In this document: piece after piece, positions 9,734 to 46,513 of the stretch
Numbering within the stretch: position 1 is the first letter of the stretch
Layout of the letters: each line of letters starts with the position of its first letter
Assembly: GCA_041661005.1 (NCBI GenBank)
Contig: JBAZVG010000001.1
Span: 543,515 to 607,514, forward strand
DNA: 64,000 nt
DNA from: Minisyncoccota bacterium
GTDB lineage: Bacteria; Patescibacteriota; Minisyncoccia; Phycocordibacterales; UBA9973
Reading direction: 5' to 3'
Notes under the pieces: generated by a model
Databases searched by the model: none
The model's input: only the letters and a program-made list of their open reading frames with translations
What the model was told of the DNA's origin: nothing
Made by a program: the position numbers and the translations under genes

Positions 9734-9734
9734 A

Positions 9735-10358: not shown

Positions 10359-10390
10359 ATCTTTATCTTAGCTCTCCTTCGCTGAAAAAG

Positions 10391-11476: not shown

Positions 11477-11481
11477 AGTTT

Positions 11482-12399
11482 CTATAAATTGAGACTAAAA
11501 AGTAATACCGCCATTCGAATGTATAAACCATTTTGTGCCTGACGAAAGTAGGCTGCGCGAGAATCTAGATCAATTGCTGAATCAACTTCATTTACCCTTG
11601 GTAAGGGATGCATGATGATCGCCTCTTTCTTTAATCTTTTTAAATGTTTTGTTTTTAGTAAAAAAGCATCTTTAACTTTATTGTAATCCTCAATATTTGA
11701 GAACCGTTCTTTCTGCACTCGTGTCATATACAAAACATCTATATCTGGTATTATTTTTTCTAGATTATCCATTTCTAAAAAAGAAACTTTTTTATTACGT
11801 AAATATTCTCGATATTCTTCTGGCAAAACTAATTCTTTCGGAGAAACAAAATAAAATTTATTGTCTGGATATAGCATCAAAAGCGGGACAAGCGAACGAA
11901 GCGTTCTGCTGTTTAACACATCACCCACAAAGGCAATGGAAATATTATCCAATCTTCCATGTTCTTTTTTTATAGTGTAAAGATCAAGAAATCCCTGGGT
12001 CGGATGCTGGTTAGCGCCGTCTCCAGCATTTATTATTGGCTTAGTTGAGACTTTCGAAGCAGTCTCCGCCGCTCCCATCTTCGGATGACGCATGACGATA
12101 AGGTCGGCGTAACAATTGAGCATTTTTGTCGTATCCTCAACCGTTTCACCTTTATAAGCAGAAGAACTGGAAGACGCGTTCTCAACAGAAATCACACTGG
12201 CTCCGAGTTTGATCGCCGCTGTTTCAAAAGACAATCGAGTGCGGGTGGATGGTTCAAAAAAAATAGAAGCTACAATTTTATTTTCTAGTTGTTTGCCATT
12301 TTTACCGCTTTTACAAAGCTTTTCCATCTTTGAAGCGACCGACAAAATCTTTTCAACATCTTTCTTCTCAAATTGTTTTGTATCCAAAATGTGTCGCAT
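11482..12399 (-). CDS. pyrB: Aspartate carbamoyltransferase catalytic subunit
   Basis: 305 aa with STRTR, HPTQ and HPLP motifs. Confidence 0.9.
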   Translation of the reverse strand: MRHILDTKQFEKKDVEKILSVASKMEKLCKSGKNGKQLENKIVASIFFEPSTRTRLSFETAAIKLGASVISVENASSSSSAYKGETVEDTTKMLNCYADLIVMRHPKMGAAETASKVSTKPIINAGDGANQHPTQGFLDLYTIKKEHGRLDNISIAFVGDVLNSRTLRSLVPLLMLYPDNKFYFVSPKELVLPEEYREYLRNKKVSFLEMDNLEKIIPDIDVLYMTRVQKERFSNIEDYNKVKDAFLLKTKHLKRLKKEAIIMHPLPRVNEVDSAIDLDSRAAYFRQAQNGLYIRMAVLLFSLNL

Positions 12400-12405
12400 A
12401 TAATT

Positions 12406-15400: not shown

Positions 15401-15648
15401 TCTTTGATTATGACTTTCTCAACAAAATAATCATTGATTGGCAAAAAATAAACTTCATCGGCTAAGGTTTTGGAAGTTTGAAAAGTTGCAATATTTGGAT
15501 TCACCAAAATGACTTTAATTTTTTCTTCTTTCAGGGCTTTGATGGCCTGACTGCCACTATAATCAAATTCCCCCGCTTCACCTATTTTCAACGCTCCGGA
15601 ACCCAAGACCAATATTTTTCTGAATTTATTTTTATTAATTTTTGTCAT
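12406..15648 (-). CDS. carB: Carbamoyl-phosphate synthase large subunit
   Basis: 1080 aa with duplicated ATP-grasp halves and an MGS-like C-terminus. Carries an in-frame low-complexity insertion (SPSPSPSGRGGGGGEG) encoded by a GC-rich palindrome at ~14748-14790. Confidence 0.95.
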   Translation of the reverse strand: MTKINKNKFRKILVLGSGALKIGEAGEFDYSGSQAIKALKEEKIKVILVNPNIATFQTSKTLADEVYFLPINDYFVEKVIIKEHPDGIMLSFGGQTALNCGLSLEKKGILKKYNVQVLGSPISSIELTEDRQFFADHLKKIGIPVPPSGSATNLKEAKKIAKEIGFPLMVRAAFTLGGQKSGVAKNERDLREIVEGALAVSPQVLIEKYLHHFKEIEYEVVRDRFGNIVTVCNMENFDPLGIHTGDSIVVAPSQTLSNSEYHGLREASIKIVESLKIVGECNVQYALNPSPSPSGRGGGGGEGLDFFVIEVNARLSRSSALASKATGYPLAYVAAKLALGHSLLEIKNKITKVTQSFFEPALDYVVVKMPRWDLEKFKGAEEKIGSAMKSVGEVMAIGRSFEEAIQKAVRMQSGLAGGVTDNGFKNGKELKKFLSIPTPKRLFAIAETMKKGASVASIYKITGIDPWFLFRLENIVRMEKAFSKNKKLNREKVLELKQAGFSDKKIGALCGKEELEIRKLRKSLNILPRVLAIDTLAGEFPAKTNYLYLTYHANYNDVSAFGKDAVLVLGSGSYHIGSSVEFDWSCVHAAMAFKRHQKKSIIINCNPETVSTDYDMSDRLYFEDLSFETVADIFEFENAYGLVISVGGQRPNNLAQKLSKEGFHILGTKAFDINQAEDRNLFSALLDKLQIAQPRWQSFTNMSQALKFTDKTGFPVLVRPSYVLSGSAMSVCYDKRQLRDFIMKASRLSPGYPVTISQYIEHAKELEFDAVAQGGEIMIYGISEHVENAGVHSGDATIVFPTQRVYASTEFQLREISKKIAKELNITGPFNIQFLVKDNHPSVIEVNLRASRTFPLLSKAMDVNFSEVAVDAFLGVAKMHKFTYPENVIVKSPQFSFARLSGADPILRVEMSSTGEVACFGKDYDEALLKSILSANKFDFNRKTVLLSLGGDLNKAKFLEATRMLIELDYKILATDTTGEFLKNKNVDCIIVRKASEQSPNVLDAILSKQVAFVINLNKEDESGILAKTITDGFRIRRATVDNQIPLFTDLHLARAFIKALARYVISDLEIKSYREYLNN

Positions 15649-16726
15649 ATTCTTTATTTGTTTTTATCCCCGCCTTTTTTAAGAAAAAATCAAATATCCA
15701 GCCCGTATCAAGGGGTCCCGGAGAACTCTCTGGATGAAATTGCACCGACATGAAAGGCAAGCTTTTGTGAATAATTCCTTCATTGGTGCCATCATTCGCA
15801 TTGTGAAACCATTCTTGGAAACCTTCTGGGATTTTCTTGATCGCAAAACCATGATTTTGAGTTGAAAGATATGCTCGCTTGGCGCCGATTTCCATAACTG
15901 GCTGATTTTGACTGCGATGCCCAAATTTAAGCTTGTAAGTGGTGCCACCAGACGCCAATGCCAAGATTTGATTGCCCAAGCAAATGCCAAAAATCGGAAT
16001 TTTTCTATCAATAATTTTCTTTACATTTTTTATAGTTGCCTGCGCCATAGTCGGGTCACCCGGACCGCTGGAAATAACTACAGCATCAAAAACGCTATCA
16101 AGTTTGGTGACATCTGTATCCCAAGGCACCACAACAACTTTCAATCCCCTCCAAACGAGACTGCGAATTATGTTTAGCTTCACTCCGCAATCTATCAATA
16201 CAATCGTATTTTCACCAACACCGCTCGTCCATATTTTTTTTGTGGAAACTTCAGCCACCAGATTTCTCAAGTTCGGATCTTCGAATGAGACAATCTCATT
16301 TTTATTTTTTTCCTGAAACTGAATTTTCCCTAGCATCACACCTTCGGTCCGCAGTTTCTTGGTCAATTCACGAGTATCTTTAACCTCTAGCGCTGGAATA
16401 TTTTGTTCCTTGAGCCATTTGGATAGAGTCATCGTCGAAGAATGATGAGACGGCGTATCAATATAATTACATACTATGAGACCAGATATTTGTATCTTGC
16501 CGGACTCCCACAATTCCTTTTTAGGAACACCATAATTCCCAATAAGCGGATAAGTCATTATCAAAATCTGACCAGCAAAAGAAGGATCGGTAATGGCCTC
16601 CGGATAACCCACCATGCCAGTCGCAAAAACAACTTCGCCAGAAATAGATTTTTCCGCACCAAAACTTTTACCCTCATAAGAGCTTCCGTCTTTTAATACT
16701 AATTGGGCTGTTTTATTTGTTTTCAT
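15635..16726 (-). CDS. carA: Carbamoyl-phosphate synthase small (glutaminase) subunit
   Basis: 363 aa, class I glutamine amidotransferase (GICLGNQ...HGFA). Overlaps carB by 14 nt. Confidence 0.9.
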   Translation of the reverse strand: MKTNKTAQLVLKDGSSYEGKSFGAEKSISGEVVFATGMVGYPEAITDPSFAGQILIMTYPLIGNYGVPKKELWESGKIQISGLIVCNYIDTPSHHSSTMTLSKWLKEQNIPALEVKDTRELTKKLRTEGVMLGKIQFQEKNKNEIVSFEDPNLRNLVAEVSTKKIWTSGVGENTIVLIDCGVKLNIIRSLVWRGLKVVVVPWDTDVTKLDSVFDAVVISSGPGDPTMAQATIKNVKKIIDRKIPIFGICLGNQILALASGGTTYKLKFGHRSQNQPVMEIGAKRAYLSTQNHGFAIKKIPEGFQEWFHNANDGTNEGIIHKSLPFMSVQFHPESSPGPLDTGWIFDFFLKKAGIKTNKEYDKN

Positions 16727-17942
16727 ATACTTTACCTTTAATAACAGTCATAACTACACTACCCGGAAAGGTCACATTTAAAAATGGCGACTGGCGCGAT
16801 TTGGTTTTTAGTTCTTTTTCCATTATTTTTACTTGCTTATCCATATCCAAGACAGTAAAAGAACCAACATATCCTTTTTCTATTCTGCCGTATTTATCTG
16901 GGGTAAATTTATTGATAAAATTCCCAGGATTGTAACTGCAAACCCTTGCGATGTTTTCGGGAATAAAATTGTGTTCTTTCATCAACCATGCAACAAATGG
17001 ACCGTAAGTATCGAGATGCGTGAGCCCAGAAATGCCTTTTTCTTTTTCCTCAATAGTGTGCGGAGCATGATCTGTCGCCAGATAATCTATGTCACCATTC
17101 TTAAGCGCGGCAATCATGCTGAGACGATTACTCTTTGTCTGACGTATAGGCGGATTCACTTGAAAGTTTCTCTTGTTCTTGGGAAGCATGGTCTCGTCAA
17201 AAAATAAGTGATGAGGCGTCACCTCGACAGTCACATTTATTCCACGTTTTTTTGCATTTATTATTTTATTTATCCCCTCTAAGGTAGAACAATGGCAAAT
17301 CTTCCCAGTGAGGTTATATTTTTCAATGAGTTTCAAGGCAAAATCCACGGCGGAAATTTCGGCCTCAGGTGGACGCCTTGCTTCATGCACATCTCTGTCT
17401 GCATTTTCTTTTAAAATTTCAGGATCTTCACAATGAAAACTTACGTGCTGATTTTTATATTTCTCTAAAGCCTTTTCCAACTCTTCATTCGAAGTAAAAA
17501 ATAAATCTCCAACAGATTGTCCCATAAAAACTTTGTAAGGAACTATTTTGGAGAGGGGTTTTGTGCTTGGCCCAATGCCAGCATAAAGAATTATGGTAAC
17601 AGGAGACTTTTCTGTTAAATCACTTTTTGTTTTAAAACTTGCATCATCTATCGGTGGCACCGGATTATTCGGCATCTCTGCAAAAGCGACCACTCCACCA
17701 TTTATCGCCGCCTCGCCTGCGCTCTTGAAATCTTCCTTATAATCCTGTGTATGACCTGCATCTTCCCTCGCATGCACATGCAAATCTATAAATCCCGGGA
17801 AAATTAATTCATCTTTAAAAATAAAATCCGCAGTCCCAGTAGGTTCGCTAACTTTTAAAATCAATCCGCTTGCTTCATCTATCTCGATTCTACCTCGCGA
17901 GACTTTATCCTTATCCACAATGTTGCCTTCAATGCTAATCAT
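16713..17942 (-). CDS. pyrC: Dihydroorotase
   Basis: 409 aa amidohydrolase with DLHVHAR... metal-binding motif. First gene of the pyr operon. Overlaps carA by 14 nt. Confidence 0.85.
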   Translation of the reverse strand: MISIEGNIVDKDKVSRGRIEIDEASGLILKVSEPTGTADFIFKDELIFPGFIDLHVHAREDAGHTQDYKEDFKSAGEAAINGGVVAFAEMPNNPVPPIDDASFKTKSDLTEKSPVTIILYAGIGPSTKPLSKIVPYKVFMGQSVGDLFFTSNEELEKALEKYKNQHVSFHCEDPEILKENADRDVHEARRPPEAEISAVDFALKLIEKYNLTGKICHCSTLEGINKIINAKKRGINVTVEVTPHHLFFDETMLPKNKRNFQVNPPIRQTKSNRLSMIAALKNGDIDYLATDHAPHTIEEKEKGISGLTHLDTYGPFVAWLMKEHNFIPENIARVCSYNPGNFINKFTPDKYGRIEKGYVGSFTVLDMDKQVKIMEKELKTKSRQSPFLNVTFPGSVVMTVIKGKVYENK

Positions 17943-19351: not shown

Positions 19352-21511
19352 TTATTTCCTCGCAGCAATGATAGTCTCCGCGACATTATTAGGCACAATG
19401 TCATAGCGGAAGAATTCCATAGTGAAAGATGCTCGGCCTTCGGTCATCGAACGCAGTCCTGTCATATAACCAAACATTTCGGAAAGAGGCACTATCGCTT
19501 TGATAACTTTATTCATTCCCCTGTCTTCCATGCCCTCAATCAACGCGCGTTTTGAAGAAAGATTGCCTGTTACGTCTCCCATAAATTTGTCTGGGGTGAC
19601 AACTTCCACTTTCATCATAGGCTCGAGAATAACGGGGTTCGCCCTTTTGCAGGCATCCTGCACCGCCATGCTTGAGGCAATCTTGAAAGCCATTTCGTTC
19701 GAGTCAACTTCATGATAACTTCCATCCCAAAGCTCCACCGACACGTTGACGATTTTAAATCCAGCCAAAACTCCGCGATCCAAGCCCTCTTTGAATCCTT
19801 TTTCACAAGGCGCAATATATTCCTGTGGAATTACTCCTCCTTTAATGGTGTTCACAAACTCAAAACCCGGAGACCTCTTGGTGTTTTTCGGCAAGTCTTC
19901 CAGCTCTTCTTTTGAAAGCATTTCCATGGGCTTCACTTTGATCTTGACATGTCCGTAGTTTCCACGTCCACCAGATTGTTTGATATATTTTCCTTCAGCT
20001 TCGGCCTGACCGTTGATTGTCTCACGATATGCTACCTGCGGTTTACCCACATTCGCTTCGACAGTAAATTCGCGTTTCATTCTATCCACAATAATTTCCA
20101 AATGCAATTCTCCCATGCCGGCGATGATAGTCTCCCCCGTTTCTTGATCAGTGCTAACTTTAAAAGTAGGATCTTCTTGAGCAAGACGATTAAGAGCCAT
20201 ACCCATTTTTTCCTGGTCAGCTTTTGTTTTTGGTTCAATGCGGAGTGAGATAACTGGTTCTGGAAAAACAATCCTATCTAAGATAATTGGATTTTCTTCA
20301 TCGCAAAGAGTATCTGAAGTAATAGTGTCTTTGAGTCCAACTGCTGCCGCGATTTCTCCAGCAAAAACTTGCTTCACTTCTTCTCGGTCATTCGCATGCA
20401 TTCGAAGAATTCGGCCGATACGTTCTTTGTTGCGCGTGCGTGGATTGTAAACATAACTGCCAGCCGAAAGAGTTCCAGAGTAAACACGGAAGAAGATAAG
20501 TTGACCGACGAATGGGTCAGTCGCAACCTTGAAAGCAAGAGCCGCAAAAGGTTCTGTGTCTGAAGCGTGTCTCTCAATAGCAACATCATCATTGTTTGGA
20601 TCAATACCACTGATTGCAGCGATGTCTGTAGGAGACGGCAAGTAGTCAATAACTGCATCCAGCACAAGCTGAACACCTTTGTTTTTTAAAGCTGAACCAG
20701 CAAATACTGGAAAGATCATATTAGCAATAACAGCCTTGCGCAGAGTCTTCTTCAAAACATCGAAATTCGGAATCACCCCCTCCAAGTATTCAGTCATCAT
20801 GACATCATCCGTCTCAACTATTTTTTCAATAAGATCTGAATGATATTTTTCCGCATCAGCTTTCAAATTCTCTGGCAAAGTGTCTAAGTCTTTTTCAATA
20901 ACTTTATTTCCCATTTCTCCTTCAAAGTAATAAGCCTTCATGCGGAGAAGATCGATAACTCCCTCAAATTTATCTTCGAGGCCAATAGGAATCTGCACTC
21001 GCACAGCTTTTTTACTCAACCTGTCTAAAATTGTTGAAAAGGAATGTTCAAAAGAAGCGCCTGTTCGGTCTAATTTGTTTATAAAACAAATACGAGGAAC
21101 TTTCGCTTCGTCAGCATAGCGCCAATTAGTCTCAGATTGAGGCTCTACACCAGCCACACCGTCGAAAACAACGACAGCGCCGTCTAGAACGCGAAGAGAA
21201 CGTTTTACTTCAACCGTAAAATCAATGTGTCCAGGAGTATCAATAATATTAAAACGATTTGTCTTTGTCTTGTCAGTGGGAGCATAGGTGGGCGTCCAGA
21301 AACATGTGACAGCCGCAGAAGTAATGGTGATTCCACGCTCTCGTTCTTGCTCCATCCAGTCAGTCGTGGTCTCACCTTCATGAACTTCACCGATCTTGTG
21401 TTTTTTTCCAGTATAATAAAGCACACGTTCTGTGGTCGTCGTTTTACCCGCATCAATGTGCGCGATAATTCCAAAATTTCTAACTTTTTCTAAAGGATAG
21501 TCTCGTTCCAT
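19352..21511 (-). CDS. fusA: Elongation factor G
   Basis: 719 aa with [18 protein letters not shown]..., full EF-G domain order. Confidence 0.95.
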
Positions 21512-26488: not shown

Positions 26489-26821
26489 TTAGGGATCCTC
26501 GGGAGTTTTTATTCGAATAAAAATGTCTTCGCCCTCAGGTGATTTTTCTTTTCTATATTTTCTCTTCTTATTTTTTTCTATTTTGGCAATTAATTCTTTT
26601 TCCATATCAAAACCCATCGCTTCGCACATCCCAAGAATAAAAATCATTACATCCGCAAATTCCTCCGCCACACCGGGCTGATTCTTATTATGTTTAGAAA
26701 ATGCTTCAGAGAGCTCTTCATGCGCTCGACAGAATTCAAGCGCAACATTAGTTGTATTAAAACCTTTCTCCAACTTATTTCTCATTACCTCTTTTTGTAA
26801 TTCTTTTAAATTTATAGACAT
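26489..26821 (-). CDS. Small MazG-like all-alpha nucleoside triphosphate pyrophosphohydrolase
   Basis: 110 aa with EELSEA...EEFADVMIFILGM (the EExxE/D metal-binding helices of the MazG/HisE superfamily). Confidence 0.6.
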   Translation of the reverse strand: MSINLKELQKEVMRNKLEKGFNTTNVALEFCRAHEELSEAFSKHNKNQPGVAEEFADVMIFILGMCEAMGFDMEKELIAKIEKNKKRKYRKEKSPEGEDIFIRIKTPEDP

Positions 26822-26826
26822 TTTAT

Positions 26827-27360
26827 TTATTGATCTTTATATGATTCTATTTCTTTATTCACAATTTCCAATTTTACTCCCGATTTTTTAAAAACATTTT
26901 TTGACTGCTCAGTTAGATGATAATTTTTAAAAGCAACAACACGTTTAATCCCCGCATTGATAATTGTTTTCGCACAAGTATAACAAGGAACCATTTTGCA
27001 ATATAGTGTTGCCCCATCAATCACAACACCGTGCCGGGCGGCATTCGCGATAGCGTTCAATTCTGCATGAGCTGTCCTGAGACAATGACGAGAAACTGTT
27101 CCATCTTCATTCGTGAGAGTATGCATCTCATGACCCACCTCGTCACAATGAGGAAGTCCAACCGGAGAACCCACGTAGCCAGTAGCAAGAATTCTTTTAT
27201 CTTTTACCAAGATTGCGCCTGAGCGTCCACGATCACAAGTTCCACGTGAACCGACAAGTTCTATCATTTGTAAGAAATACTCGTCCCAGGATGGACGTTT
27301 GTGTTTTGTAACTTTTTCGACAGTCTTTTTCATATCTCTAATATACTCCAAAAATATCAA
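26827..27360 (-). CDS. dCMP deaminase (CMP/dCMP-type zinc deaminase)
   Basis: 177 aa with HAELNAI...PCYTCAKTII (the H-A-E and PC-x-x-C zinc motifs). Confidence 0.8.
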   Translation of the reverse strand: MIFLEYIRDMKKTVEKVTKHKRPSWDEYFLQMIELVGSRGTCDRGRSGAILVKDKRILATGYVGSPVGLPHCDEVGHEMHTLTNEDGTVSRHCLRTAHAELNAIANAARHGVVIDGATLYCKMVPCYTCAKTIINAGIKRVVAFKNYHLTEQSKNVFKKSGVKLEIVNKEIESYKDQ

Positions 27361-27482: not shown

Positions 27483-28511
27483 CTAATCTTTTTTTCCAAG
27501 CGCTTTTAACACTTTTAAATACATGGCTTCAACTATCTTTTTCTGTTTTTTACCAGTTGTAACATAGTGATCCAACCCCGGAGCGGCGTTAATCTCGATA
27601 ATATAATAACTACAATCTTTAGGATTTTGGGTTATATTTCCCTTTGTGACCATGATGTCCACCCCTGCAATACGTAGCCCCATTTTTTTTGTAAGTTCTA
27701 TGGCAATTTTCTGAAACTTTTTATGAATTACGTCAGTAACATCAACAGAATCTCCACCAGTGGACAGATTTGCGTTATCCAGTAGAAATATTTGCTGGTT
27801 TTTTTTGAGGATACTTTTAAAACTTAAAGTTTGTCTTGCCAATTTGTTTTTAATTCTTTCGTCAGAAAAATTTATTTTTGTATCTCGCTTATCAAAAATA
27901 AAATTCCTTTGTTTTTGTTTCAAAAGTGAAAGTACCGAACTTTTTCCATCTCCAGTAACAGAAAGTGGTATTCGTTCATAAGCAGAAATTATTTTTTCAT
28001 CGAGAACCACGATGCGATAATCGAGCCCCGGTAAATATCGCTCAATAATCGCTATTTTATCTGTCTTGAAAATTTCCAGCAGTACTCGCTTCAACTCTTT
28101 ATCATTCCAAACAAGAGCCACACCGGAACCTTGGCTCTGGCTATTTGGCTTTGCTATAACTGGATATCCTAAATGTTTCGCATATTTTATCCCTGACAAA
28201 ATTGTGCGATTGCTTTTTATGGCTTTAGCCCAGGAATCTTTAAAAAAAGTCCGTCCTTTCGCTACCGGATACCCGAGCTTTTTCATGAAAAATTTGGCGT
28301 AATCTTTATCTTTAGCAATATCCGCTGAAGCGACATGATTCAAGTCCAAAGAATAAAAACGCAATGACCTAGTGATGCCATTTGGATAAATTATTTGAGC
28401 TACGACTCCCCATTCCGGCTCGATCACAATCTTTGCGCCAATTTTCGGCGCAAGTTTTTTTAGAAGATTAGTCAAATACGGAAAAGATGGTTTTTTATTT
28501 CTTTTTTTCAT
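27483..28511 (-). CDS. ATP-grasp ligase, RimK/CofF/cyanophycin-synthetase-like
   Basis: 342 aa with ...NLSTGGDSVDVT...GVDIMV...YIIEINAAPGLD, which is comparable to RimK SNLHRGG...VDIL...MEVNASPGL. Overlaps the upstream cofE-like gene by 17 nt. Confidence 0.55.
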   Translation of the reverse strand: MKKRNKKPSFPYLTNLLKKLAPKIGAKIVIEPEWGVVAQIIYPNGITRSLRFYSLDLNHVASADIAKDKDYAKFFMKKLGYPVAKGRTFFKDSWAKAIKSNRTILSGIKYAKHLGYPVIAKPNSQSQGSGVALVWNDKELKRVLLEIFKTDKIAIIERYLPGLDYRIVVLDEKIISAYERIPLSVTGDGKSSVLSLLKQKQRNFIFDKRDTKINFSDERIKNKLARQTLSFKSILKKNQQIFLLDNANLSTGGDSVDVTDVIHKKFQKIAIELTKKMGLRIAGVDIMVTKGNITQNPKDCSYYIIEINAAPGLDHYVTTGKKQKKIVEAMYLKVLKALGKKD

Positions 28512-29217
28512 CTTTTATGATTTTTAAATTGGAAAAAAGCGGGGCATAAATATCTTTACTTGGATTAATGACAAGCTCTCCTCGTTTTATCTTATTAGTA
28601 AAAGTCACTGGCGCATTAGAAATGACCGCGAGGGGTTGCTTTTCTTTTCCCTCACCCATGCAAAGCACCGCAGATGTGGCCAAGCTATCTGCGATATCAG
28701 TCTTAGACATTTTCAAAACCCTGCCAAAAATATCTTTAGCGCCTACATAGTTTCGAATACCCTCAAATCCAGCGTAACTCAACGCCACACCCACAACCCC
28801 TGCGCGAAGTGGCATAAGTCTTGAGTCTGTTATTAAAACTCCTAGATTTTTTAAGTGAAAATGTCGCATTAATTTTCGACGTAAAACCTCTGCGCTTTTA
28901 AAACTATTTTTAGGCAAAAGAATTAGCTTCCCATCGGCATTAGACTCATCAATGCCAGCATTCGCCATCACTATGCCATTTTTAATGGAAAGCCAGACAA
29001 GTTTAGTCTTTAAGGCAAAATCACTTTCTTGTTTTATTAGAGCGACTTTTTGCTTTTCATTTTTATAGTCTACAGTCCTTCCCTCGGCAAGCGCAACAAT
29101 TTTAGAAGTCACGACTAAAACAGATTTCTCAGGAATTTTTTTAACGTATTTTAAAATAAATTGGAGCAAGTTTTCGTCTTTCCGAAATATTCTAGTTTTG
29201 ATTGCTTTGATTTGCAT
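28495..29217 (-). CDS. CofE-family gamma-glutamyl ligase-like protein (F420-0:gamma-glutamyl ligase family)
   Basis: 240 aa with VLVVTSKIVALAEGR and IVMANAGIDESN, the two hallmark CofE/FbiB-N motifs. No other F420 genes in the window. Confidence 0.6.
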   Translation of the reverse strand: MQIKAIKTRIFRKDENLLQFILKYVKKIPEKSVLVVTSKIVALAEGRTVDYKNEKQKVALIKQESDFALKTKLVWLSIKNGIVMANAGIDESNADGKLILLPKNSFKSAEVLRRKLMRHFHLKNLGVLITDSRLMPLRAGVVGVALSYAGFEGIRNYVGAKDIFGRVLKMSKTDIADSLATSAVLCMGEGKEKQPLAVISNAPVTFTNKIKRGELVINPSKDIYAPLFSNLKIIKDEKKK

Positions 29218-29854
29218 TTGGATTACCTCTAAGGAGTTTAATACCTAAATATGAGAGCGGAGTGTAAAACAAGCCCATCAAAACTTTATACAGCCACCAA
29301 GTAATAATGATACTGATTAAGGTTTTTGTCTCATAAATCCCGGCGAAAGCAATTAACATAAACAAGGCACTGTCGAGCAGCTGCGACCAAAGATTTGATA
29401 AGAGTGAGCGCAACCAGAAAAATTTAGGTCCTAATTTTTCTCGAACAAAGAAGAAAGTAAACACATCTTGATATTCAGCCACGATAAATGCTACGAGAGA
29501 TGCTAAAGCCATTCGGCCAGAAATACCAAAAATAAGGTTGTAACCTTCTTTTGCCCAAAGTCCCTGCTCTGCCCAAGGCAACCATAATGACAATAAAGAA
29601 TACAGAATAAATAAAGCGGTGCTGATAAAACCGGCCCTCACGAATAACTTTGCTAAACGCTTGCCGTAAACTTCTCCGATTACGTCAGTCATCAAAAATA
29701 CTATCGGGAATGAAAACACGGCCACGGACAAATGCGATCCAAACAGAAAAGGCATAATTTTTAAGCCTAAAGTATTCGCCGCAAAAAGAGAAGTAAGATA
29801 AAGGGTCAAACAAATAAGGATTTTCTTATAATCTCTTTCAGTAAGTGTTTGCAT
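29192..29854 (-). CDS. VUT/DUF165-family transporter (YhhQ-like putative queuosine-precursor or vitamin transporter)
   Basis: 220 aa with six predicted TM helices. Length and topology resemble YhhQ-type proteins. Assignment is from memory of the family and is moderate. Confidence 0.45.
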   Translation of the reverse strand: MQTLTERDYKKILICLTLYLTSLFAANTLGLKIMPFLFGSHLSVAVFSFPIVFLMTDVIGEVYGKRLAKLFVRAGFISTALFILYSLLSLWLPWAEQGLWAKEGYNLIFGISGRMALASLVAFIVAEYQDVFTFFFVREKLGPKFFWLRSLLSNLWSQLLDSALFMLIAFAGIYETKTLISIIITWWLYKVLMGLFYTPLSYLGIKLLRGNPNANQSNQN

Positions 29855-29869
29855 ATTTTATCGTAAAAA

Positions 29870-30295
29870 TTATCCCTTTACCTCAATGCCCATTGAGCGA
29901 GCCGAGCCAGCGATGATATTTATAGCACCCTCATCATCTTTGGCATTCAAGTCGCCTCTTTTTTTATTCGCAATTTCCAGAGCTTGCGCGCGGGTAATCT
30001 TTCCAGCTTTTGTGGCAACATTTTTACCTGATCCCTTTTCCACTCCGGCAGCTTTCAAAATAAGCCCAGTTGCAGGCGGAGTCTTTACTACGAAATCATA
30101 GCTACGATCTTCATAAACAGTAATAGAAACACCGACTTTATCCCCCGCCATTTTAGCAGTAGCCGCATTGAATTTAGTAACGAAGTCGCCGATGTTTATC
30201 CCCGCTTGTCCAAGAGCCGGCCCTAGTGGTGGCGCCGGAGTAGCTTTGGCAGCCTGAATTTGTAATTTTATTTTTTTTGTAATTTTCTTCGCCAT
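29870..30295 (-). CDS. rplK: 50S ribosomal protein L11
   Basis: 141 aa with [35 protein letters not shown]..., canonical L11. Not followed by rplA. Confidence 0.95.
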
Positions 30296-30317: not shown

Positions 30318-30860
30318 TTATATTTTCTTAACTTGCAAGAAATCCAGTTCGACCGGGGTTTCGCGACCAAACATTGAAACAAGCACCTTGACCTTCCCGC
30401 GTTCCTCGTCGACAGAATTCACTTTTCCTTCAAGATCTTTGAACGGACCATCGGTAATCAAAATACTTTCGCCAATAACCATATCGATATTGTGTCTTGT
30501 CGTACCGGCATCCATTTTCTTGAAAAGATAATCAACTTCTTCTTTTTTGAGAGGCACCGGATTCACTCCTGCGCCAACAAAACCAGTAACTCTGGGGGTA
30601 TTCCTAACAACATACCAAGAATCATCCGTCACGATCATATCAACTAATACGTAACCCGGATAAATCTTTTCTTCCACTTCCACTCTCTTGCCTCCCTTTA
30701 TTTTTATCTTCTTTTCAATAGGAACGATGACATTAAAAATCTTGTCATGCATACCCAAAGAATCTATGCGTTGTTTTAAGTTACGCAGAACAACGTTTTC
30801 ATATCCGGCATAAGTATGGATAGCATACCAATTTCTAGATCCTTGTTCTTCTTGTTTCAT
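30318..30860 (-). CDS. nusG: Transcription termination/antitermination factor NusG
   Basis: 180 aa with NGN domain (WYAIHTYAGYENVV) and C-terminal KOW. Confidence 0.9.
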   Translation of the reverse strand: MKQEEQGSRNWYAIHTYAGYENVVLRNLKQRIDSLGMHDKIFNVIVPIEKKIKIKGGKRVEVEEKIYPGYVLVDMIVTDDSWYVVRNTPRVTGFVGAGVNPVPLKKEEVDYLFKKMDAGTTRHNIDMVIGESILITDGPFKDLEGKVNSVDEERGKVKVLVSMFGRETPVELDFLQVKKI

Positions 30861-30876: not shown

Positions 30877-31062
30877 TTACAGCAAAATTATTTTTTCCAA
30901 ACCTTTTGAAAAAATAAAATCGAAAATACCCAAATAATACGCTACGATGACAGACAAGACTATGACAATCAAAGTATAATAAAAGGTTTGGCTCCTGTTT
31001 GGCCAAATCACGTGCTTCAATTCTGTCTTTGTTTCTTTAAAATATTCAGTAATTTTTGACAT
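30877..31062 (-). CDS. secE: Preprotein translocase subunit SecE
   Basis: 61 aa, single TM helix, located upstream of nusG. Confidence 0.75.
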   Translation of the reverse strand: MSKITEYFKETKTELKHVIWPNRSQTFYYTLIVIVLSVIVAYYLGIFDFIFSKGLEKIILL

Positions 31063-32766: not shown

Positions 32767-35700
32767 TTATCTATTTAACAAACTTCTCACCTCGTATCCG
32801 ACAATTCCATCGCTTTTTAATCCATTGTCAGTTTGGAATTTGATGACAGCCTCTTTGACTTTGGCACCGAAGTTTCCATCGACATTTCCAGCGTCATATC
32901 CTGCTCCATTCAAGAATTTCTGAAGCTCTCTGACTTCATTTCCATAAGAACCTTCTTCTAGAAATTGAGTGAAGTGAAAGGAACCTGCGTTAGAAACATT
33001 TCCATCTGTATTCGCCGTTCCGTTTATCGCGGTAGCAACTAGAGACGATGATAGATTGCGAGTGGTCGAACCTGAAGAACAAGTATATAATCTCGGATAA
33101 TCGCCAACGCCTACATTCACCCATTGAGATCCATCGAAACGATAATGATCTCCAGTCGTGGGATTATCACCCTGAACCTTCGAAGTTCCACTGGTATATA
33201 CTTTTCCCGGCACGGCTTGGCACCATTTTGTGGCCGTTCCGGTGTCATTGAAAGGCAAGAGGTCGCCATTTCCAAAATTCACTCGTGGATTGTAATAAAT
33301 ATCTCCTGAAGAGATACTAGTCATCCAACTAATGGACTTTAGATCAAGTGAATTAGTTACCGTCTTGTTAGCACATGCGCCATTTACTGAATACTCTGTA
33401 GAACAGGACATGAGAATGTTTGAAACTTTGCCGTCATCTGCACAGTAACCTTCAGCAACAGAAGTGCAAGAATCTCCGGAACATACTCCTCCATTCGAAG
33501 CAACAGATACATCCCTAAAATATGAACCTAACCCATTAACACGCCCGTCGGCAAGCCCCGCCACGTTTGGATTTCTTCCATCGTCAGAATCGGTGCAGGA
33601 CGATACAGTGGTTGGAGAGGTGATGGTGAAATAATTATTACTTAATCCGATTGCGAGTACGCCGCTTCCCGTCACAGTATCAAAAGCTTCGATACGGAGT
33701 TTGTAATGATTCCCGGCAGGAATCAGGTGTGGCATCGGCGTAGCCAGGGTGATTCTACTTGTTGAGAGCTGAATTGCGGTTGAGACCTGATAATTTAAGT
33801 TTGTATCGGTATTCAAGAGAAAAACGTTGGCTTGTTTGCCGACCAAACCGCTTGGTGTGAAATCAATTCCAATCACATCCGTCGAGCTGAATGTTCCCCC
33901 ATTTGGACTTGTAACGGTGATGGAAGGTTGAGTGGTAGAAACTGGACTAAAACTCACTCCAATAATATGACTCCCTGTAACATTGTAAAACGTATAGGAG
34001 GAGGCGACTGGAACAGTACTGTTATTATCAAGAGTAATAGTACTAACTTTGTAACCAACATTAGGAGTAAAAGTGAAAGTCTTGTTACTTCCAGCCGGAA
34101 CAGTAATATGTCCAGATGGAGAAATCGTTCCACCTTCGCTAGTAGAAGTAATAATCGTGGGTTGCGTTGCTCCAACAGAACAAAGAACATTACTACTTGC
34201 ATTAACATTGTTTAAAGTACAATCATTCCTAGCATTATTTGTACATCCCTGATAAACGCCACTCTTACTGAAACAAACGTTTTCAAACCCTTGATTTTTG
34301 CAAGAATTGTAATAACCTTGCTGGGTCTGTTGAAGGGTAGAACAACTTAGGGTTGAAGTCGTTGGAGAAGTGATGGTGAAAACACCACTTCGAGAAACAA
34401 TTCCATGTGGAATATCACTAATGATAATTTGTGTGTTTGTCATTGCAGTATCTGGTGTCCATGAGTATCGACAAGCATACGTGGCATCACATCTGCTTCC
34501 TGTTCCTTGAAGTTGGCCTGCAGAAATACTTGATACAATTGTCCTGTTACCACCGCTTGTTACATAAGCTATTGAGAATGAATCGTTTATATTACTGATA
34601 TTTGGGTCCAGCCATGTAATTTGATACGGTTGACCAACTACCAAATTTTCTCCACTTGTTGGACTAACGACAGTGATGGAAGGGCTAGTAGAAACAGTTC
34701 CCCTTGGTACTATATTTGATGCTGGAATGCTTATTCTTGCACTAGTGTTATCGGTGAAATTTAACAAGAGATAACCTCCGGCAAATCTCTGACTGCCGGG
34801 ATAACCATAAGCATAGAAACTAAGTCCACCATAAGCGGGAATTTGCCAGCCAATGTTGTCAGTTTGAGTGGCATTGGGTTCACAATTGACTCCGCAGGAT
34901 TGGCTTGTGGTCCATCCTAAAATGTAAAGATATTTACCAACAGGATTGTTGGATGAAGCATCAGTCGCCCAGCCTTCTCCGGAAGTGTTGTGCACAAGTA
35001 CCATTCTCTTGATGGTCTTCGCGCTAGAGCCCGAATTATTTATTTTAACTGCCCATTTCCAATCAGGACCATGAATTCTGCCCCCGATTGAAGTATTCCA
35101 TTTAATCGGATGGTCTTCACTGGCGCTTACTAATTCTGCGGAGCCGGTGATGTAGGGAGTTTGAGTATTAGTACCAGAAGTGATAGTGATAGTTGAATTG
35201 CTTAAACCACAAGTGTCGGAAGAACTTTGGCAAACTTTAACAGTATAAACTCCATCCGGAACAATCCCACTCAAATAATTACCTACTGTCCAATTGTAAG
35301 AAGAACCTTGAGTATTAGCAATGACATATACAGATCCAGTTGAAATTAGTTCTACTTCATGAGTAGAAATATTGTTTGTATCATTCCAACTAAGAGTTTT
35401 TGTTGTACCTCTCACCCACGTCACTCTCTCATTTGGGCTTGTGACAGTGATAGAAGGTTGGGTTGATGGTGTACCGATAGTAAACGAAATCGAGTTTTGT
35501 GTATTGAACGCAAGAGAGCCGTTTGAATTACGACCTTGTGCAGTTAGTGAATATAGTCCAGGAGGGAAATTGGGAACTGTAAAACTTAAATAAGTACCAA
35601 CTATGGATGCATCTGTATCACCAGATAAAGTTTTTCCAGCAAAGGTGACGGTGTAAGAATATGCACTATGTAAATCAAACATGTACATTGCGACTTTTTC

Positions 35701-36489
35701 ACCTGGCAGAGCATTATTTGTGCCTAAAGAAGTGATAGAAGGTTGAGTGGTATTCCCCACATTCACGCTCAAACTCGTCTGCGCAGTTTGACCAACTGCA
35801 TTTTGAACTGTAAACCTCGGAGTGAATATTCCTGATTTTACATAGCTATGTTGAAAGGTTGCAGACTGTGTCGGAATGTTAAGAACTTGCGAGTTAGAAC
35901 CTGCTTGTATATTAGTAGCTTCATCTCCCCAAAGCACAGAATACATGAGTTCTCCTCCATTTGGACTAGAAGCACGGACACTCCAAGTCCCTTGCTGATT
36001 GACATTCAATGTTTGTGGTCCACTTACTCCGCTGATAACTGGATTATTATTGGTTCCTTCTTCGCAAGACCTGCCGGTAGTAGAACTAAAACCTGTGTTT
36101 GAAGCACAACCTGGCGGAAAATTCGATGAGTTACCGCAAGGTAGACCCGTGGTTATGCTGTATCCGGAATTAGATGTACATCCCGCTGGAAAATTTGTGG
36201 AAACAAGACTATCGCATTTTACCCCAGTGAGCGGACTGTAGCCGGCAGTTGAAGTACAACCTGAGGGAAGCGATGAGTTAATTACTGTATCGCACTTTAC
36301 TCCGGTAAGTGGACTATACCCACGAGTTGAAGTACAACCTGCTGGCAAAGATCTGGTGGACGAAGATCCACTACCTCCACCGGAAGATCCTCTATTTATA
36401 GCTGCCATCTGCGCACTTGCAGAATTAGTAAAACCTAGTAAAGAAAATACTAAAGTAAAAATAAACAAAAACAATATGTATTTTTTCAT
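32767..36489 (-). CDS. Giant cell-surface protein with Cys-motif repeats and a C-terminal peptidoglycan-binding domain
   Basis: Likely start at MKKYILFLFIF (signal/TM). Four ~20-aa repeats xPxGC[TA]S[TN]xG[YF]SxxTGxxC, long beta-rich Thr/Ser-rich regions, and a C-terminal PG_binding_1-like segment (LQKFLNGAGYDAGNVDGNFGAKVKEAVIKFQTDNGLKSDGIVG). Confidence 0.7.
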   Translation of the reverse strand: MKKYILFLFIFTLVFSLLGFTNSASAQMAAINRGSSGGGSGSSSTRSLPAGCTSTRGYSPLTGVKCDTVINSSLPSGCTSTAGYSPLTGVKCDSLVSTNFPAGCTSNSGYSITTGLPCGNSSNFPPGCASNTGFSSTTGRSCEEGTNNNPVISGVSGPQTLNVNQQGTWSVRASSPNGGELMYSVLWGDEATNIQAGSNSQVLNIPTQSATFQHSYVKSGIFTPRFTVQNAVGQTAQTSLSVNVGNTTQPSITSLGTNNALPGEKVAMYMFDLHSAYSYTVTFAGKTLSGDTDASIVGTYLSFTVPNFPPGLYSLTAQGRNSNGSLAFNTQNSISFTIGTPSTQPSITVTSPNERVTWVRGTTKTLSWNDTNNISTHEVELISTGSVYVIANTQGSSYNWTVGNYLSGIVPDGVYTVKVCQSSSDTCGLSNSTITITSGTNTQTPYITGSAELVSASEDHPIKWNTSIGGRIHGPDWKWAVKINNSGSSAKTIKRMVLVHNTSGEGWATDASSNNPVGKYLYILGWTTSQSCGVNCEPNATQTDNIGWQIPAYGGLSFYAYGYPGSQRFAGGYLLLNFTDNTSARISIPASNIVPRGTVSTSPSITVVSPTSGENLVVGQPYQITWLDPNISNINDSFSIAYVTSGGNRTIVSSISAGQLQGTGSRCDATYACRYSWTPDTAMTNTQIIISDIPHGIVSRSGVFTITSPTTSTLSCSTLQQTQQGYYNSCKNQGFENVCFSKSGVYQGCTNNARNDCTLNNVNASSNVLCSVGATQPTIITSTSEGGTISPSGHITVPAGSNKTFTFTPNVGYKVSTITLDNNSTVPVASSYTFYNVTGSHIIGVSFSPVSTTQPSITVTSPNGGTFSSTDVIGIDFTPSGLVGKQANVFLLNTDTNLNYQVSTAIQLSTSRITLATPMPHLIPAGNHYKLRIEAFDTVTGSGVLAIGLSNNYFTITSPTTVSSCTDSDDGRNPNVAGLADGRVNGLGSYFRDVSVASNGGVCSGDSCTSVAEGYCADDGKVSNILMSCSTEYSVNGACANKTVTNSLDLKSISWMTSISSGDIYYNPRVNFGNGDLLPFNDTGTATKWCQAVPGKVYTSGTSKVQGDNPTTGDHYRFDGSQWVNVGVGDYPRLYTCSSGSTTRNLSSSLVATAINGTANTDGNVSNAGSFHFTQFLEEGSYGNEVRELQKFLNGAGYDAGNVDGNFGAKVKEAVIKFQTDNGLKSDGIVGYEVRSLLNR

Positions 36490-36540
36490 ATACCTAAGTA
36501 TACCCACCCCGGGCGAATTTGTTAAATAAGTTATCCACAC

Positions 36541-36696: not shown

Positions 36697-37062
36697 CTAT
36701 TTAAGCTCAATTTTCCCTCCTGCTGCTTCGATTTTTTTCTTTAAATCGTTCGCTTCTTCTTTCTTCATTCCCTCTTTCAAGGTTCCCGGAGCGGCATCAA
36801 CCAAGTCCTTGGCATCTTTCAAACCAAGACCAAGAGTTTCTTTTACGACTTTCATCACAGCTATCTTTTGGTCGCCAGCGGACGCCAAAACAACAGTGTA
36901 AGTGCTTTGTTCTTCGGCTACAGGAGCTGCTCCAGCGCCTCCACCGATAGCGACAGCTGCGGCAGACACTCCAAATTTCTCCTCAATGGCTTTTACAAGC
37001 TCATTGAGCTCCAAAACTGAAGCGCTTTCTAAATCTTTCATAAACCCATCGAATTTTGACAT
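36697..37062 (-). CDS. rplL: 50S ribosomal protein L7/L12
   Basis: Internal start [38 protein letters not shown]...[22 protein letters not shown]...[21 protein letters not shown]. The ORF-track upstream extension overlaps repeat A2. Confidence 0.9.
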
Positions 37063-37082
37063 AATATTTTTGTTTAAAAATA

Positions 37083-37169
37083 ATTTTAATAATTCCCCTC
37101 TTGAGGGGTGGCGTTTATGCCGGGGTGGATATAATTCGTCCACCTCCCCCCTAAAGGGTACTCCTCAAA
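37083..37169. repeat. Structured intergenic repeat, family A copy 2 (between rplJ and rplL)
   Basis: ATTCCCCTCTTGAGGGGTGG...GGTGGA-N8-TCCACCTCCCC-CCTAAAGGG-TACTCCTCAAAGAGGAGAAT. See copy 1 at 3391-3486. Confidence 0.7.
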
Positions 37170-37178
37170 GAGGAGAAT

Positions 37179-37658
37179 CTATTTCCCTTTCGCTACTTCA
37201 CCAACCGCGATAGCTAAACGTTGCATCGGACTCTTGAGTAAGAATGCAAGTTTCGAAAGCAAAACTTCTTTCGAAGGTATCATCGCTAGCTCCATCATTT
37301 TTGCGCCGGTGATAAATTTCCCTTCAAAAATCCCTCCTAAAATATTCAGCATCCCCTTGTGGGTTTTCTGAAAATTATAGATTTCACGCGGTCCCGCTAT
37401 TTCATCCTTTGAATACGCGATAGCAACTTCTCCTTCAAGATCCGGAATTTCGCCTTCCGCTTTTCCTTTCAATGCTCGAGCAAGAAGGGTTTTTCTGGAA
37501 ACTTTATAGCCTACTCCACCTGAACGAAGGTCCCGACGAAGTATAGTCTCATCGCTGACTTTCAAACCATGAAAATTCACGAAAACTAAAGACTCAGATT
37601 CTTTGATCACTCCCTCAAGATCTTTTACTATTTCTTCTTTTTTTGATTTTTGTAACAT
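37179..37658 (-). CDS. rplJ: 50S ribosomal protein L10
   Basis: 159 aa in the rplJ-rplL arrangement. The L10 fold is recognisable (MLQKSKKEEIVKDLEGVIKESESLVFVNFHGLKV...). Confidence 0.85.
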   Translation of the reverse strand: MLQKSKKEEIVKDLEGVIKESESLVFVNFHGLKVSDETILRRDLRSGGVGYKVSRKTLLARALKGKAEGEIPDLEGEVAIAYSKDEIAGPREIYNFQKTHKGMLNILGGIFEGKFITGAKMMELAMIPSKEVLLSKLAFLLKSPMQRLAIAVGEVAKGK

Positions 37659-37693
37659 GTTTGATTTTTAAAAACTTTTGAAACATAATTTTT

Positions 37694-37787
37694 TGAAGGG
37701 GTTTCGAGGCTGTCGAGCCGAGAACTTCCCTTGGCCGTCCCGGCACGGGCGAGGCAGGATTTTTTAAGCTTAAAAAAATCCGTACCG
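37694..37787 (+). repeat. Structured repeat, family C copy c (with a 27-nt internal insertion)
   Basis: GAAGGGGTTTCGAG-GCTGTCGAGCC-GAGAACTTCC[insert CTTGGCCGTCCCGGCACGGGCGAGGC]AGGATTTTTTAAGCTTAAAAAAATCCGTACCG. Confidence 0.65.
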
Positions 37788-37799
37788 AAAAAAAATTGA

Positions 37800-37990
37800 T
37801 GTTGATAAAGTTTTAACTAAAAAAACGGCTTTCGCCGTCAAAGATATCGACCCCGCCTTGACTCGCATAGGCGAGGCAGGCCACTAAATAGGCTATAACA
37901 AAGATTTATCTTTGTTCGCCCGTTCCGACTATGTCGGAATTAGGGACTTATTAAGACCTTACGGTCGCCTATCTTCTTTGCGGTATTTAC
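37800..37990. other. GC-rich multi-hairpin non-coding region (candidate structured RNA)
   Basis: Successive hairpins ACGGC-TTTC-GCCGT, GCCT..CTCGC-ATAG-GCGAG..AGGC and TTCCGAC-TAT-GTCGGAA. No ORF. GC-rich relative to surroundings. The motif GGCGAGGCAGG recurs at 37748 and 37869. Confidence 0.3.
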
Positions 37991-38008
37991 AATATAACAC
38001 AAGACGCT

Positions 38009-38278
38009 CTATTTTGCAAAATAGTTCACCAAGAAAACACTGCCAAGCCCTAAAACTATGATCGTGGTAAAAAGAAGTAATGTTTTTAAAAAGTGTTTTG
38101 TAACCATATAAATTAACGATATCCCCTCAACCACAATACAACCAACAGAAAAACTAGAACAACAATAAAAGAATGCCAGACATCCCAATCCGAATATATG
38201 TTTTTTTTCTTCAAAAAGTTTGAGAACTTTTTGTCCCCTTCCAGAAAAAGAATATATGGCAAAACAGCAATCATCCAC
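38009..38278 (-). CDS. Small hypothetical membrane protein (uncertain; overlapping alternative ORF at 38113-38304)
   Basis: 89 aa, hydrophobic. No homology recognised. Confidence 0.25.
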   Translation of the reverse strand: MDDCCFAIYSFSGRGQKVLKLFEEKKHIFGLGCLAFFYCCSSFSVGCIVVEGISLIYMVTKHFLKTLLLFTTIIVLGLGSVFLVNYFAK

Positions 38279-38349
38279 CAGACTTTAAAAAGGAATTCAA
38301 ACATAAACCTATTTTAACAAAATCTTGTTACAAACACTAGACGACCAAT

Positions 38350-46427: not shown

Positions 46428-46513
46428 TGGTGCGCGGGAGAGGAATCGCACCTCCACGCCCTTGCGGGCACTACCACCTCAAGGTAGCTCGGCTACTGTT
46501 ACGACACCCGCGC
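46428..46513 (-). tRNA. tRNA-Leu(GAG)-like, class II, atypical D and T loops
   Basis: Minus strand reads GCGCGGG-UG-UCG-UAACAGUAGC-CGA-G-CUACC-UUGAGGU-GGUAG-[UGCCCGCAAGGGCGUG]-GGAGG-UGCGAUU-CCUCU-CCCGCGC-A-CCA. Perfect 7-bp acceptor, encoded CCA, long variable arm. The D-loop lacks GG and the T-loop is UGCGAUU, so it may be a variant or a pseudo-tRNA. Confidence 0.5.

Follow-up and report, generated by a model that had tools for sequence, protein, structure and literature searches.

A probable folate salvage and retention cluster joined to thymidylate synthesis downstream of rplK in a Patescibacteria genome

A 64,000-nucleotide stretch of a Minisyncoccota bacterium genome (assembly GCA_041661005.1, contig JBAZVG010000001.1, positions 543,515 to 607,514; hereafter the window) raises the question of what a VUT/YhhQ-family membrane transporter, a CofE-like gamma-glutamyl ligase and a stand-alone ATP-grasp ligase might do together, encoded one after the other behind the gene of ribosomal protein L11 (rplK). 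An earlier note on this DNA had likened the two ligases to the pair that builds and caps the tail of coenzyme F420, had itself doubted an F420 role, and had proposed either import of a precursor followed by oligoglutamylation, as folylpolyglutamate synthetase does for folates, or glutamylation of a ribosomal or translation component. Our analysis, which covered the window and 10-kb flanks, favours a unit for the salvage and retention of folate that is linked to thymidylate synthesis, to which we give a probability of about 0.6. The host is a Paceibacteria/Nomurabacteria-type bacterium of the Candidate Phyla Radiation (CPR) that probably lost ribosomal protein L1. The first proposal of the note comes close to this reading, but the ligase is of the described FolC2/CT611 kind and not part of a wholly uncharacterised system. 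The domain assignments of the three proteins were confirmed (Pfam/NCBIfam E-values of 1e-39 to 1e-53), the open reading frames (ORFs) lie on the minus strand at the coordinates of Table 1, and the motifs that had been quoted (VLVVTSKIVALAEGR, ANAGIDESN, NLSTGG and EINAAPGLD) are all present in the translations.

The only Pfam match of the ligase is PF01996 F420_ligase (138 bits, 4.1e-40), and its public annotation is 'coenzyme F420-0:L-glutamate ligase'. Among the NCBIfam models, however, the protein scores highest, at 220 bits, on TIGR04132 ('putative folate metabolism gamma-glutamate ligase'), and its scores on the CofE equivalogs, three models in all, stay at 110-137 bits, each under its cutoff (e.g., TIGR01916 (CofE), 136.9 bits versus 180.65, and NF009809, 132 versus 274). 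TIGR04132 also outscores the CofE models in six relatives, with 185-344 bits. The TIGR04132/TIGR01916 scores are 185-251/104-158 bits in other Patescibacteria (251/112 at locus L058), 290/125 in a Verrucomicrobia metagenome-assembled genome (MAG), where the copy follows FolP (L059), and 344/100 in an Alphaproteobacteria MAG (L060), whereas a true CofE from Rhizobiales, taken as control, shows the opposite pattern, with 92 bits on TIGR04132 and 297 bits, above cutoff, on TIGR01916.

The residues follow the same division. In A. fulgidus CofE (Af-CofE) the segment lying against the F420 chromophore is G153-R154-C155 (PMC10861534), and in our alignment, in which Af-CofE is represented by residues 78-223 only, with R234 outside, this segment reads L-M-P in the window protein ('TDTNGRCFRRG' in Af-CofE, 'NDSFGRPWRNG' in the Rhizobiales CofE and 'TDSRLMPLRAG' in the window). 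It is G-R-C/P in the true CofEs and T-T-P in L059 and L060. In addition, a CofE insertion of ~16 aa is missing from the FolC2-like group, and a C-terminal motif, D-[ILM]-[YF]-x-P-L-[FL], stands in for that of CofE, while the catalytic core motifs NAGID(E/A)SN, TDS, KDxFGR, ADxLA and MGEG are common to both groups. In Chlamydia, the place of FolC is taken by its COG1478 counterpart FolC2, a paralogue of CofE (PMC1971073, PMC4161248, PMC5041015), and complementation of an E. coli folC mutant by ct611 is on record (PMC1971073, PMC4161248). Given that TIGR04132 scores above the CofE models and that folate genes neighbour the related loci, as described below, the window protein is most likely a FolC2-type folate glutamate ligase mis-annotated as an F420 ligase.

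The gene context was analysed in 60 FolC2-like (CofE-like) loci from species-representative genomes, counting folate neighbours within 5 kb, and at least one folate enzyme gene confirmed by hidden Markov model (HMM) was found in 40 of them. The confirmed neighbours include FolA (202 bits), ThyA (325), SHMT (520) and DHPS (289, above cutoff), as well as FolD, 5-formyltetrahydrofolate cyclo-ligase (5-FCL) and a RibD_C/DHFR-like protein; a CADD-family neighbour reaches 197.7 bits on TIGR04305, whose cutoff is 200. FolA/ThyA are present in 19 loci, FolD in 8 and GlyA in 7, FolP occurs with CADD in L012, L013 and L142 and is found in L059, and 5-FCL is found in L038 and L039. Several arrangements recur: VUT > (DHFR-like) > ligase > dCMP deaminase > MazG, with FolA and ThyA on the opposite strand; FolD > VUT > ligase; VUT > ligase > GlyA > FolD; 5-FCL > ligase > FolA; and rplK > FolP > CADD > ligase, with the order FolP > ligase also seen in the Verrucomicrobia MAG. 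Such variation of the gene order from one lineage to the next speaks against mere inheritance of synteny. The FolP-CADD-ligase order parallels folKP-folA-folC2-ct610 of the chlamydial operon folB-folKP-folA-folC2-ct610 (PMC1971073, PMC4161248, PMC5041015), in which CADD/CT610 is the para-aminobenzoate (pABA) synthase (PMC9522330). Within this set of loci, the window is the variant with ThyX.

The transporter matches PF02592 Vut_1 over its full length (135.5 bits, 2.6e-39) and is 27% identical to E. coli YhhQ, with 54 bits on the E. coli-type model NF008406 (cutoff 252). Among the 57 loci with at least 900 bp upstream of the CofE-like gene, a VUT gene lies directly upstream of the ligase gene, on the same strand and usually overlapping it, in 40, and this pairing spans Paceibacteria, Gracilibacteria and Peribacteria in several gene orders. 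Where a locus shows rplK as well as the ligase, the intervening slot is occupied by VUT with or without a DHFR-like gene (14 + 16 loci), by a 235-aa membrane protein (2 + 6 loci) or by FolP and CADD (2 + 1 loci), and no such locus carries two of these alternatives together. With a glutamate ligase preceded in some loci by one or the other of two uptake-type proteins and in others by a synthesis route, the most straightforward interpretation is that each of the three provides the ligase with pteroate or folate. That the VUT protein itself imports folate or a pteroate-type compound is, in our view, an evenly balanced matter; such a substrate would extend the known specificities of the family.

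The 235-aa membrane protein (L004, 8778-9485; also L017, L100, L102, L115-L117 and L154) has no Pfam or NCBIfam match and no informative name among its top-listed homologues. Its family counts 1061 homologues, and the ones listed are unnamed or 'hypothetical', save one UniRef entry called 'ECF tran...'. With an AlphaFold2 (AF2) model (pLDDT 74), the top ten matches in the PDB are only S components of energy-coupling factor (ECF) transporters (4huq_S, RibU, BioY, FolT), although these matches are weak, with E-values of at least 0.027. In two loci, a second, divergent VUT paralogue (L020, 14721-15458; L026, ~9807-10445), 26-27% identical to the window protein, was found ~5 kb from the copy linked to the ligase, so the VUT family has diversified within single CPR genomes. 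Around the second copy of L020 no queuosine (Q) gene was recognised by eye, its neighbours being an aldo-keto reductase and a riboflavin-kinase-like gene.

The third protein, of 342 aa, is matched by ATP-grasp models with E-values down to 1.3e-53. Its scores are highest on the cyanophycin synthetase model TIGR02068 (182 bits versus a cutoff of 850, covering only the G domain, positions 206-471 of 862) and on GshAB (156 bits). Both a PDB sequence search and a Foldseek search with the AF2 model (pLDDT 76.5) placed CphA2, CphA1 and GshF first (1e-22 to 1e-20), and in the fold search RimK came only at rank 19 (2.6e-11). By means of the PDB-search alignment, the residues described for TeCphA1 (PMC9427784) were mapped on the window protein, where the ATP-binding, Mg-binding and acyl-phosphate-stabilising set is conserved as K69, K121, R166, R180, N248, S250, E306 and G312 (CphA1 K220, K261, R309, R323, N394, S396, E450 and G456), together with the G-omega loop 'ANLSTGG'. 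Two positions differ, H267 of CphA1 being Q127 and R458 being D314, and R458 is the residue that holds the alpha-carboxylate of the incoming aspartate (PMC9427784). Given that most catalytic residues are kept but R458 corresponds to Asp314, the protein is probably an active carboxylate-amine ligase that would bind its nucleophile unlike CphA1.

The earlier note had treated the three genes as a unit, which did not hold, since only 11 of the 60 FolC2-like loci have the ATP-grasp gene next to the ligase gene. A search with the ATP-grasp protein gave 80 metagenome loci, and in all of them its gene lies inside the same deoxythymidine monophosphate (dTMP)/folate cluster. Homologues with 54-58% identity adjoin FolA, GlyA > FolD or FolP < ligase, and others in this identity range adjoin apparent purL/purQ genes (by eye). 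At 41-43% identity, homologues adjoin genes of the 5-FCL family in 2 of 5 informative contexts, with the caveat that this family, COG0212, also has a thiamin-related paralogue (PMC5041015). In a full-library HMMER search thousands of ATP-grasp relatives were detectable, forming 326 representative clusters at E <=1e-30. The closest relatives are stand-alone proteins of ~330-350 aa, and the longer ones examined are tandem or multi-ATP-grasp proteins, one of them also with acylphosphatase and LPG-synthase domains. Tandem two-module relatives of ~620-655 aa (P0408, P0441, P0452, P0463 and P0484) hint at enzymes performing two successive ligations. From the gene context we conclude that the ATP-grasp protein belongs to folate/one-carbon metabolism. 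Since the glutamate tail holds the only carboxylates of the cofactor, ligation on this tail is the most economical guess for its reaction, a tentative one that we would still call doubtful.

The family assignments, the conserved neighbourhoods and the alternation of genes in the slot upstream of the ligase were observed computationally, and a route joining them would run as follows. The VUT/QPTR protein would import folate, probably reduced, or a pteroate-type compound, to which the nucleoside triphosphate (NTP)-dependent FolC2-type ligase would add one or more glutamates; in relatives with FolP and CADD, dihydropteroate would be the ligase substrate. Glutamylation would trap the cofactor in the cell and make it a good substrate for folate enzymes, and from the family assignment together with the gene context we hold this predicted step to be quite likely. 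The polyglutamylated cofactor would then be used by the adjacent ThyX-like protein, with deoxyuridine monophosphate (dUMP) provided by the dCMP deaminase and the MazG-like enzyme, a route that the de novo uridine monophosphate (UMP) pathway of the window (8915-17942) would feed as well. Finally, the ATP-grasp protein would carry out a second ligation on the folate tail. This could be an alpha-linked cap or extension or, where FolC2 is absent, a tail ligation independent of it, in which case the protein could be a third, non-orthologous folylglutamate ligase. The joint proposal, namely that a QPTR branch switched from 7-deazaguanines to folate or pteroate as an importer of CPR bacteria and that a CphA-G/GshF-type ATP-grasp protein is an unrecognised folate-tail ligase, appears rather unlikely to hold in both its halves.

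Two other readings of the cluster were rejected. According to one, the CofE-like enzyme would add gamma-glutamates to imported F420-0 and the ATP-grasp protein would cap the tail as CofF does, as suggested by the Pfam match and public name of the ligase and by the formal resemblance to the CofE/CofF pairing that the earlier note had taken for an identity. The HMM cutoffs, the true-CofE control and the chromophore contacts that are not kept speak against it, in accordance with the doubts about an F420 role voiced in that note. The ATP-grasp protein, moreover, is not the RimK-like CofF that had been supposed, as it reaches only 32.7 bits on the CofF model TIGR04443 (cutoff 300), 41.4 on MptN NF040720 (350) and 48.6 on the RimK family TIGR00768 (143.4). 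No F420 genes (cofC, cofD, fbiC/cofGH) were seen by eye among the ORFs of the window, and the neighbours are folate and dTMP genes, all of which makes F420 tail synthesis extremely improbable. In the other, a ribosomal or translation protein would be modified in the manner of RimK, for which one could invoke that the genes follow rplK at gaps of at most 15 nt or overlap, and that RimK is an ATP-grasp enzyme. However, the linkage to rplK was found only in a Nomurabacteria-like lineage, and elsewhere the VUT-ligase pair travels with FolD/GlyA, a DHFR-like gene or unrelated genes. RimK also ranks far under CphA and GshF in the fold search, distant homologues of the ATP-grasp protein adjoin FolA, 5-FCL and putative purL, and we know of no CofE-family enzyme that acts on a protein, which we count against this reading as well. 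We consider it very improbable, and the post-rplK placement is a lineage-specific gene order without functional link to the ribosome.

The remaining alternatives concern single proteins. The transporter might be an ordinary importer of queuosine precursors (preQ0, preQ1 or queuine), the ligase receiving its substrate by another route. Its score on TIGR00697 ('queuosine precursor transporter', 114 bits) is above the cutoff of 50.95, every characterised QPTR/YhhQ member carries 7-deazaguanines (PMC5372724, PMC11130926), and the second paralogues described above attest that the family has diversified. Yet 7-deazaguanines offer no carboxylate to the ligase, the tight pairing with it extends over three lineages and several orders, the same slot otherwise holds an S-component-like protein or FolP and CADD but never both, and inspection of the recurrent neighbour clusters, by eye and not by HMM, revealed no gene of the Q pathway, so that we regard this explanation as unlikely. 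A more open case is that the ATP-grasp protein has nothing to do with the folate tail and instead makes a small peptide or poly-amino acid, or activates formate like PurT, its placement in the cluster being regulatory or historical. Its closest relatives are indeed the CphA G domain and the GshF module, it is found without the ligase, tandem-duplicated relatives exist, and some of the distant homologues have no folate neighbours while others stand beside the apparent purL/purQ. On the other side, its gene accompanies FolA, GlyA-FolD, FolP-ligase and 5-FCL in arrangements and lineages independent of one another, it lacks the M domain needed for cyanophycin synthesis and the GshA partner domain, and the aspartate-holding R458 of CphA1 is replaced by Asp (PMC9427784). 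This alternative is well possible, although the odds are somewhat against it.

Besides the TIGR00697 score and the substrates of the characterised QPTR members, several further observations weigh against the folate salvage reading. The window itself contains no FolA, ThyA, FolD, GlyA, FolP or DHFR-like gene, the only connection to folate nearby being a ThyX-like protein that is divergent and unusually long. The ligase remains under the curated cutoff of TIGR04132 (220 versus 350 bits); since this model was built on a narrow group, we place the protein, by its scores, in a sister branch to the TIGR04132 group, as a separate Patescibacteria branch. In ~18 of the 80 metagenome loci rplK is followed by the ATP-grasp gene without transporter or ligase, in 2 of the 5 informative contexts of its distant homologues there is no folate gene nearby, and the full-library HMMER search gave no fusion of the ATP-grasp protein to a folate domain. 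Finally, Rfam scans covering the window and 11 related loci with long upstream gaps revealed no tetrahydrofolate (THF) riboswitch upstream of VUT. The same scans gave no preQ1 riboswitch, only tRNA and tmRNA genes, and as regards the transporter they are no evidence either way.

The genes of the cluster and its surroundings are listed in Table 1. The co-oriented run starts at secE, with gaps of 16 nt between secE and nusG and 22 nt between nusG and rplK. The genes after rplK had been described as overlapping, which is correct for the transporter and CofE-like genes (26 nt) and for the CofE-like and ATP-grasp genes (17 nt), but rplK and the transporter gene are 15 nt apart. Since no terminator-like site was found outside coding sequence from rplK to the stop of the ATP-grasp gene, co-transcription of this segment is plausible. 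A gap of 122 nt separates the ATP-grasp gene from the dCMP deaminase gene, which in relatives without ATP-grasp overlaps the CofE-like gene by ~12 nt, and the MazG-like gene is conserved in 16 related loci. The ThyX-like protein is about twice the usual length, with the PF02511 match over residues 56-231 and 21.9 bits on TIGR02170 (cutoff 87.9), and its gene sits where relatives have ThyA and FolA. FolA is absent from all five ThyX loci (including L044, L120, L121 and L139). ThyX regenerates THF and not dihydrofolate, so that FolA would be dispensable there.

Table 1. Genes of the predicted folate/thymidylate cluster and its surroundings, in window coordinates
Gene or product	Coordinates	Strand	Supporting match or remark
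secE	30877..31062	-	First gene of the co-oriented run; ORF; homologous ORFs of relatives match PF00584 SecE
nusG	30318..30860	-	PF02357 NusG (5.6e-27) and KOW
rplK (ribosomal protein L11)	29870..30295	-	PF03946 and PF00298
VUT/QPTR (YhhQ, COG1738)-family membrane transporter, 220 aa	29192..29854	-	PF02592, TIGR00697
FolC2-type (CofE-family, COG1478) gamma-glutamyl ligase, predicted folylpolyglutamate/dihydrofolate synthase, 240 aa	28495..29217	-	PF01996, TIGR04132
Stand-alone ATP-grasp ligase, cyanophycin-synthetase-G/GshF type, 342 aa	27483..28511	-	TIGR02068, GshAB
dCMP deaminase (supplies dUMP)	26827..27360	-	PF00383 (4.4e-23); TIGR02571 ComEB 124 bits, under cutoff 219
MazG-like all-alpha NTP pyrophosphohydrolase, probably converting dUTP/dCTP to dUMP/dCMP	26489..26821	-	PF12643 (30 bits)
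ThyX-like flavin-dependent thymidylate synthase, 449 aa	25138..26487	+	PF02511 (61 bits); convergent with the cluster

As the earlier note had stated, there is no rplA after rplK in the window. The rplJ-rplL genes lie at 36697-37658, 6.6 kb away, no L1-sized ORF was seen beside them, and in related loci showing rplK the next genes are folate genes or the ATP-grasp gene, never rplA. The note had placed the cluster where rplA should be. The gap is explained by a known lineage trait, since a large group of Parcubacteria has been named OD1-L1 for the lack of L1 (PMC5220378; bioRxiv 10.1101/2022.01.07.475337), and it does not imply that a new gene 'replaces' L1. Upstream of rplJ, a stretch of ~690 bp (37659-38349) gives no Rfam match, and none of its ORFs exceeds 89 aa; its length is that of an L1 gene, but a remnant of rplA is not recognisable in it by eye. 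Two metagenome contigs (L087 and L088; Ga0208958_1002012 and Ga0208375_1003866) show the order rplK > ATP-grasp > dCMP deaminase > rplK > VUT > ligase > dCMP deaminase, i.e., both locus variants in tandem with rplK duplicated, either as a real duplication or as a chimeric assembly of two strains.

The general view is that bacteria of the CPR (Patescibacteria) rely on other cells to obtain cofactors. Most of them carry folate-using enzymes (folA/glyA/folD in 90.8% of genomes in one survey), yet the MAGs analysed there yielded no known folate transporter (PMC11974145), and the cluster gives candidates for uptake, in the VUT protein or its S-component-like alternative, and for retention, in the FolC2-type ligase. 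Our literature searches found no description of FolC2 in CPR and no discussion of a CPR folylglutamate synthase, nor any description of the VUT-CofE pairing or of the ATP-grasp family, which is well populated and tracks one-carbon genes. The ligase appears to represent a new, sizeable branch of the known FolC2 kind within the CPR, and the coupling to a QPTR transporter and the folate-associated ATP-grasp protein of CphA-G type are put forward as new predictions. Thousands of CPR proteins bear the names 'coenzyme F420-0:L-glutamate ligase', 'queuosine precursor transporter' or 'cyanophycin synthetase', a systematic mis-annotation flagged here that could mislead metabolic reconstructions toward F420, queuosine or cyanophycin metabolism.

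Some other features of the window are worth recording. Many CPR bacteria are thought to be without nucleotide synthesis; here, a complete de novo UMP pathway (8915-17942, minus strand; pyrC, carA, carB, pyrB, pyrD-like, pyrE and pyrF, with carB recognised by eye only and pyrD and pyrC under curated cutoffs) lies between fusA (19352-21511) and tuf (6824-8038) and splits the usual rpsL-rpsG-fusA-tuf operon. At 32767-36540 (minus strand), a predicted surface protein of 1257 aa carries Cys-containing repeats (P.GCTS..GYSP.TG.KCD) at its N-terminus, and its C-terminal segment resembles, by eye, a peptidoglycan-binding domain. A possible homing endonuclease, a free-standing ORF of 225 aa in which two LAGLIDADG-like motifs were recognised by eye, is located at 46523-47200 (minus strand), immediately upstream of a tRNA-Leu gene (46428-46513). 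The stretch 50000-52300 has a GC content of 0.44 versus ~0.38 in neighbouring segments and carries ORFs that overlap, on both strands, after which come tRNA-Arg and tRNA-Val genes; it may be foreign or non-coding sequence.

Compared with known systems, the transporter resembles QPTR/YhhQ (COG1738, TC 2.A.88) in its ~220 aa, its strong hydrophobicity and its full-length PF02592 match, but it is coupled to a folate ligase, with no Q genes or preQ1 riboswitch seen. For the ATP-grasp protein, the CphA G domain and the GshF module are the best sequence and fold match, with the carboxylate-binding Arg (R309 = R166) and 'ANLSTGG' kept. However, CphA1 and CphA2 are proteins of ~600-900 aa with N-G-M or G-M organisation, whereas the window protein has 342 aa and neither an N nor an M domain; it also has no GshA domain, unlike GshF, and its gene neighbourhood belongs to folate and nucleotide metabolism rather than to nitrogen storage or the metabolism of thiols. 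With CofF and MptN, which cap F420 and tetrahydromethanopterin, respectively, it shares only a functional analogy, an ATP-grasp protein beside a gamma-glutamyl ligase, as the subfamily differs. The ligase has a fold homologous to CofE and FbiB's N-terminal domain, with common catalytic core motifs, but differs from them in its sub-cutoff scores, in lacking the G-R-C/P segment, the CofE insertion and the CofE C-terminal motif, and in having no F420 genes near it. The closest counterpart is FolC2 (Chlamydia trachomatis CT611, TIGR04132), to which the window ligase is similar in family and size (~240 aa), and whose clustering with folP, a CT610/CADD-type pABA synthase and folA recurs among the relatives of the window ligase, where 5-FCL is added. 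The predicted reaction would be the same, an NTP-dependent glutamylation of dihydropteroate or folate, but while CT611 belongs to a full de novo pathway, ligases of the window type are mostly paired with a transporter, as for salvage, and the one described here is embedded in a dTMP cluster after rplK.

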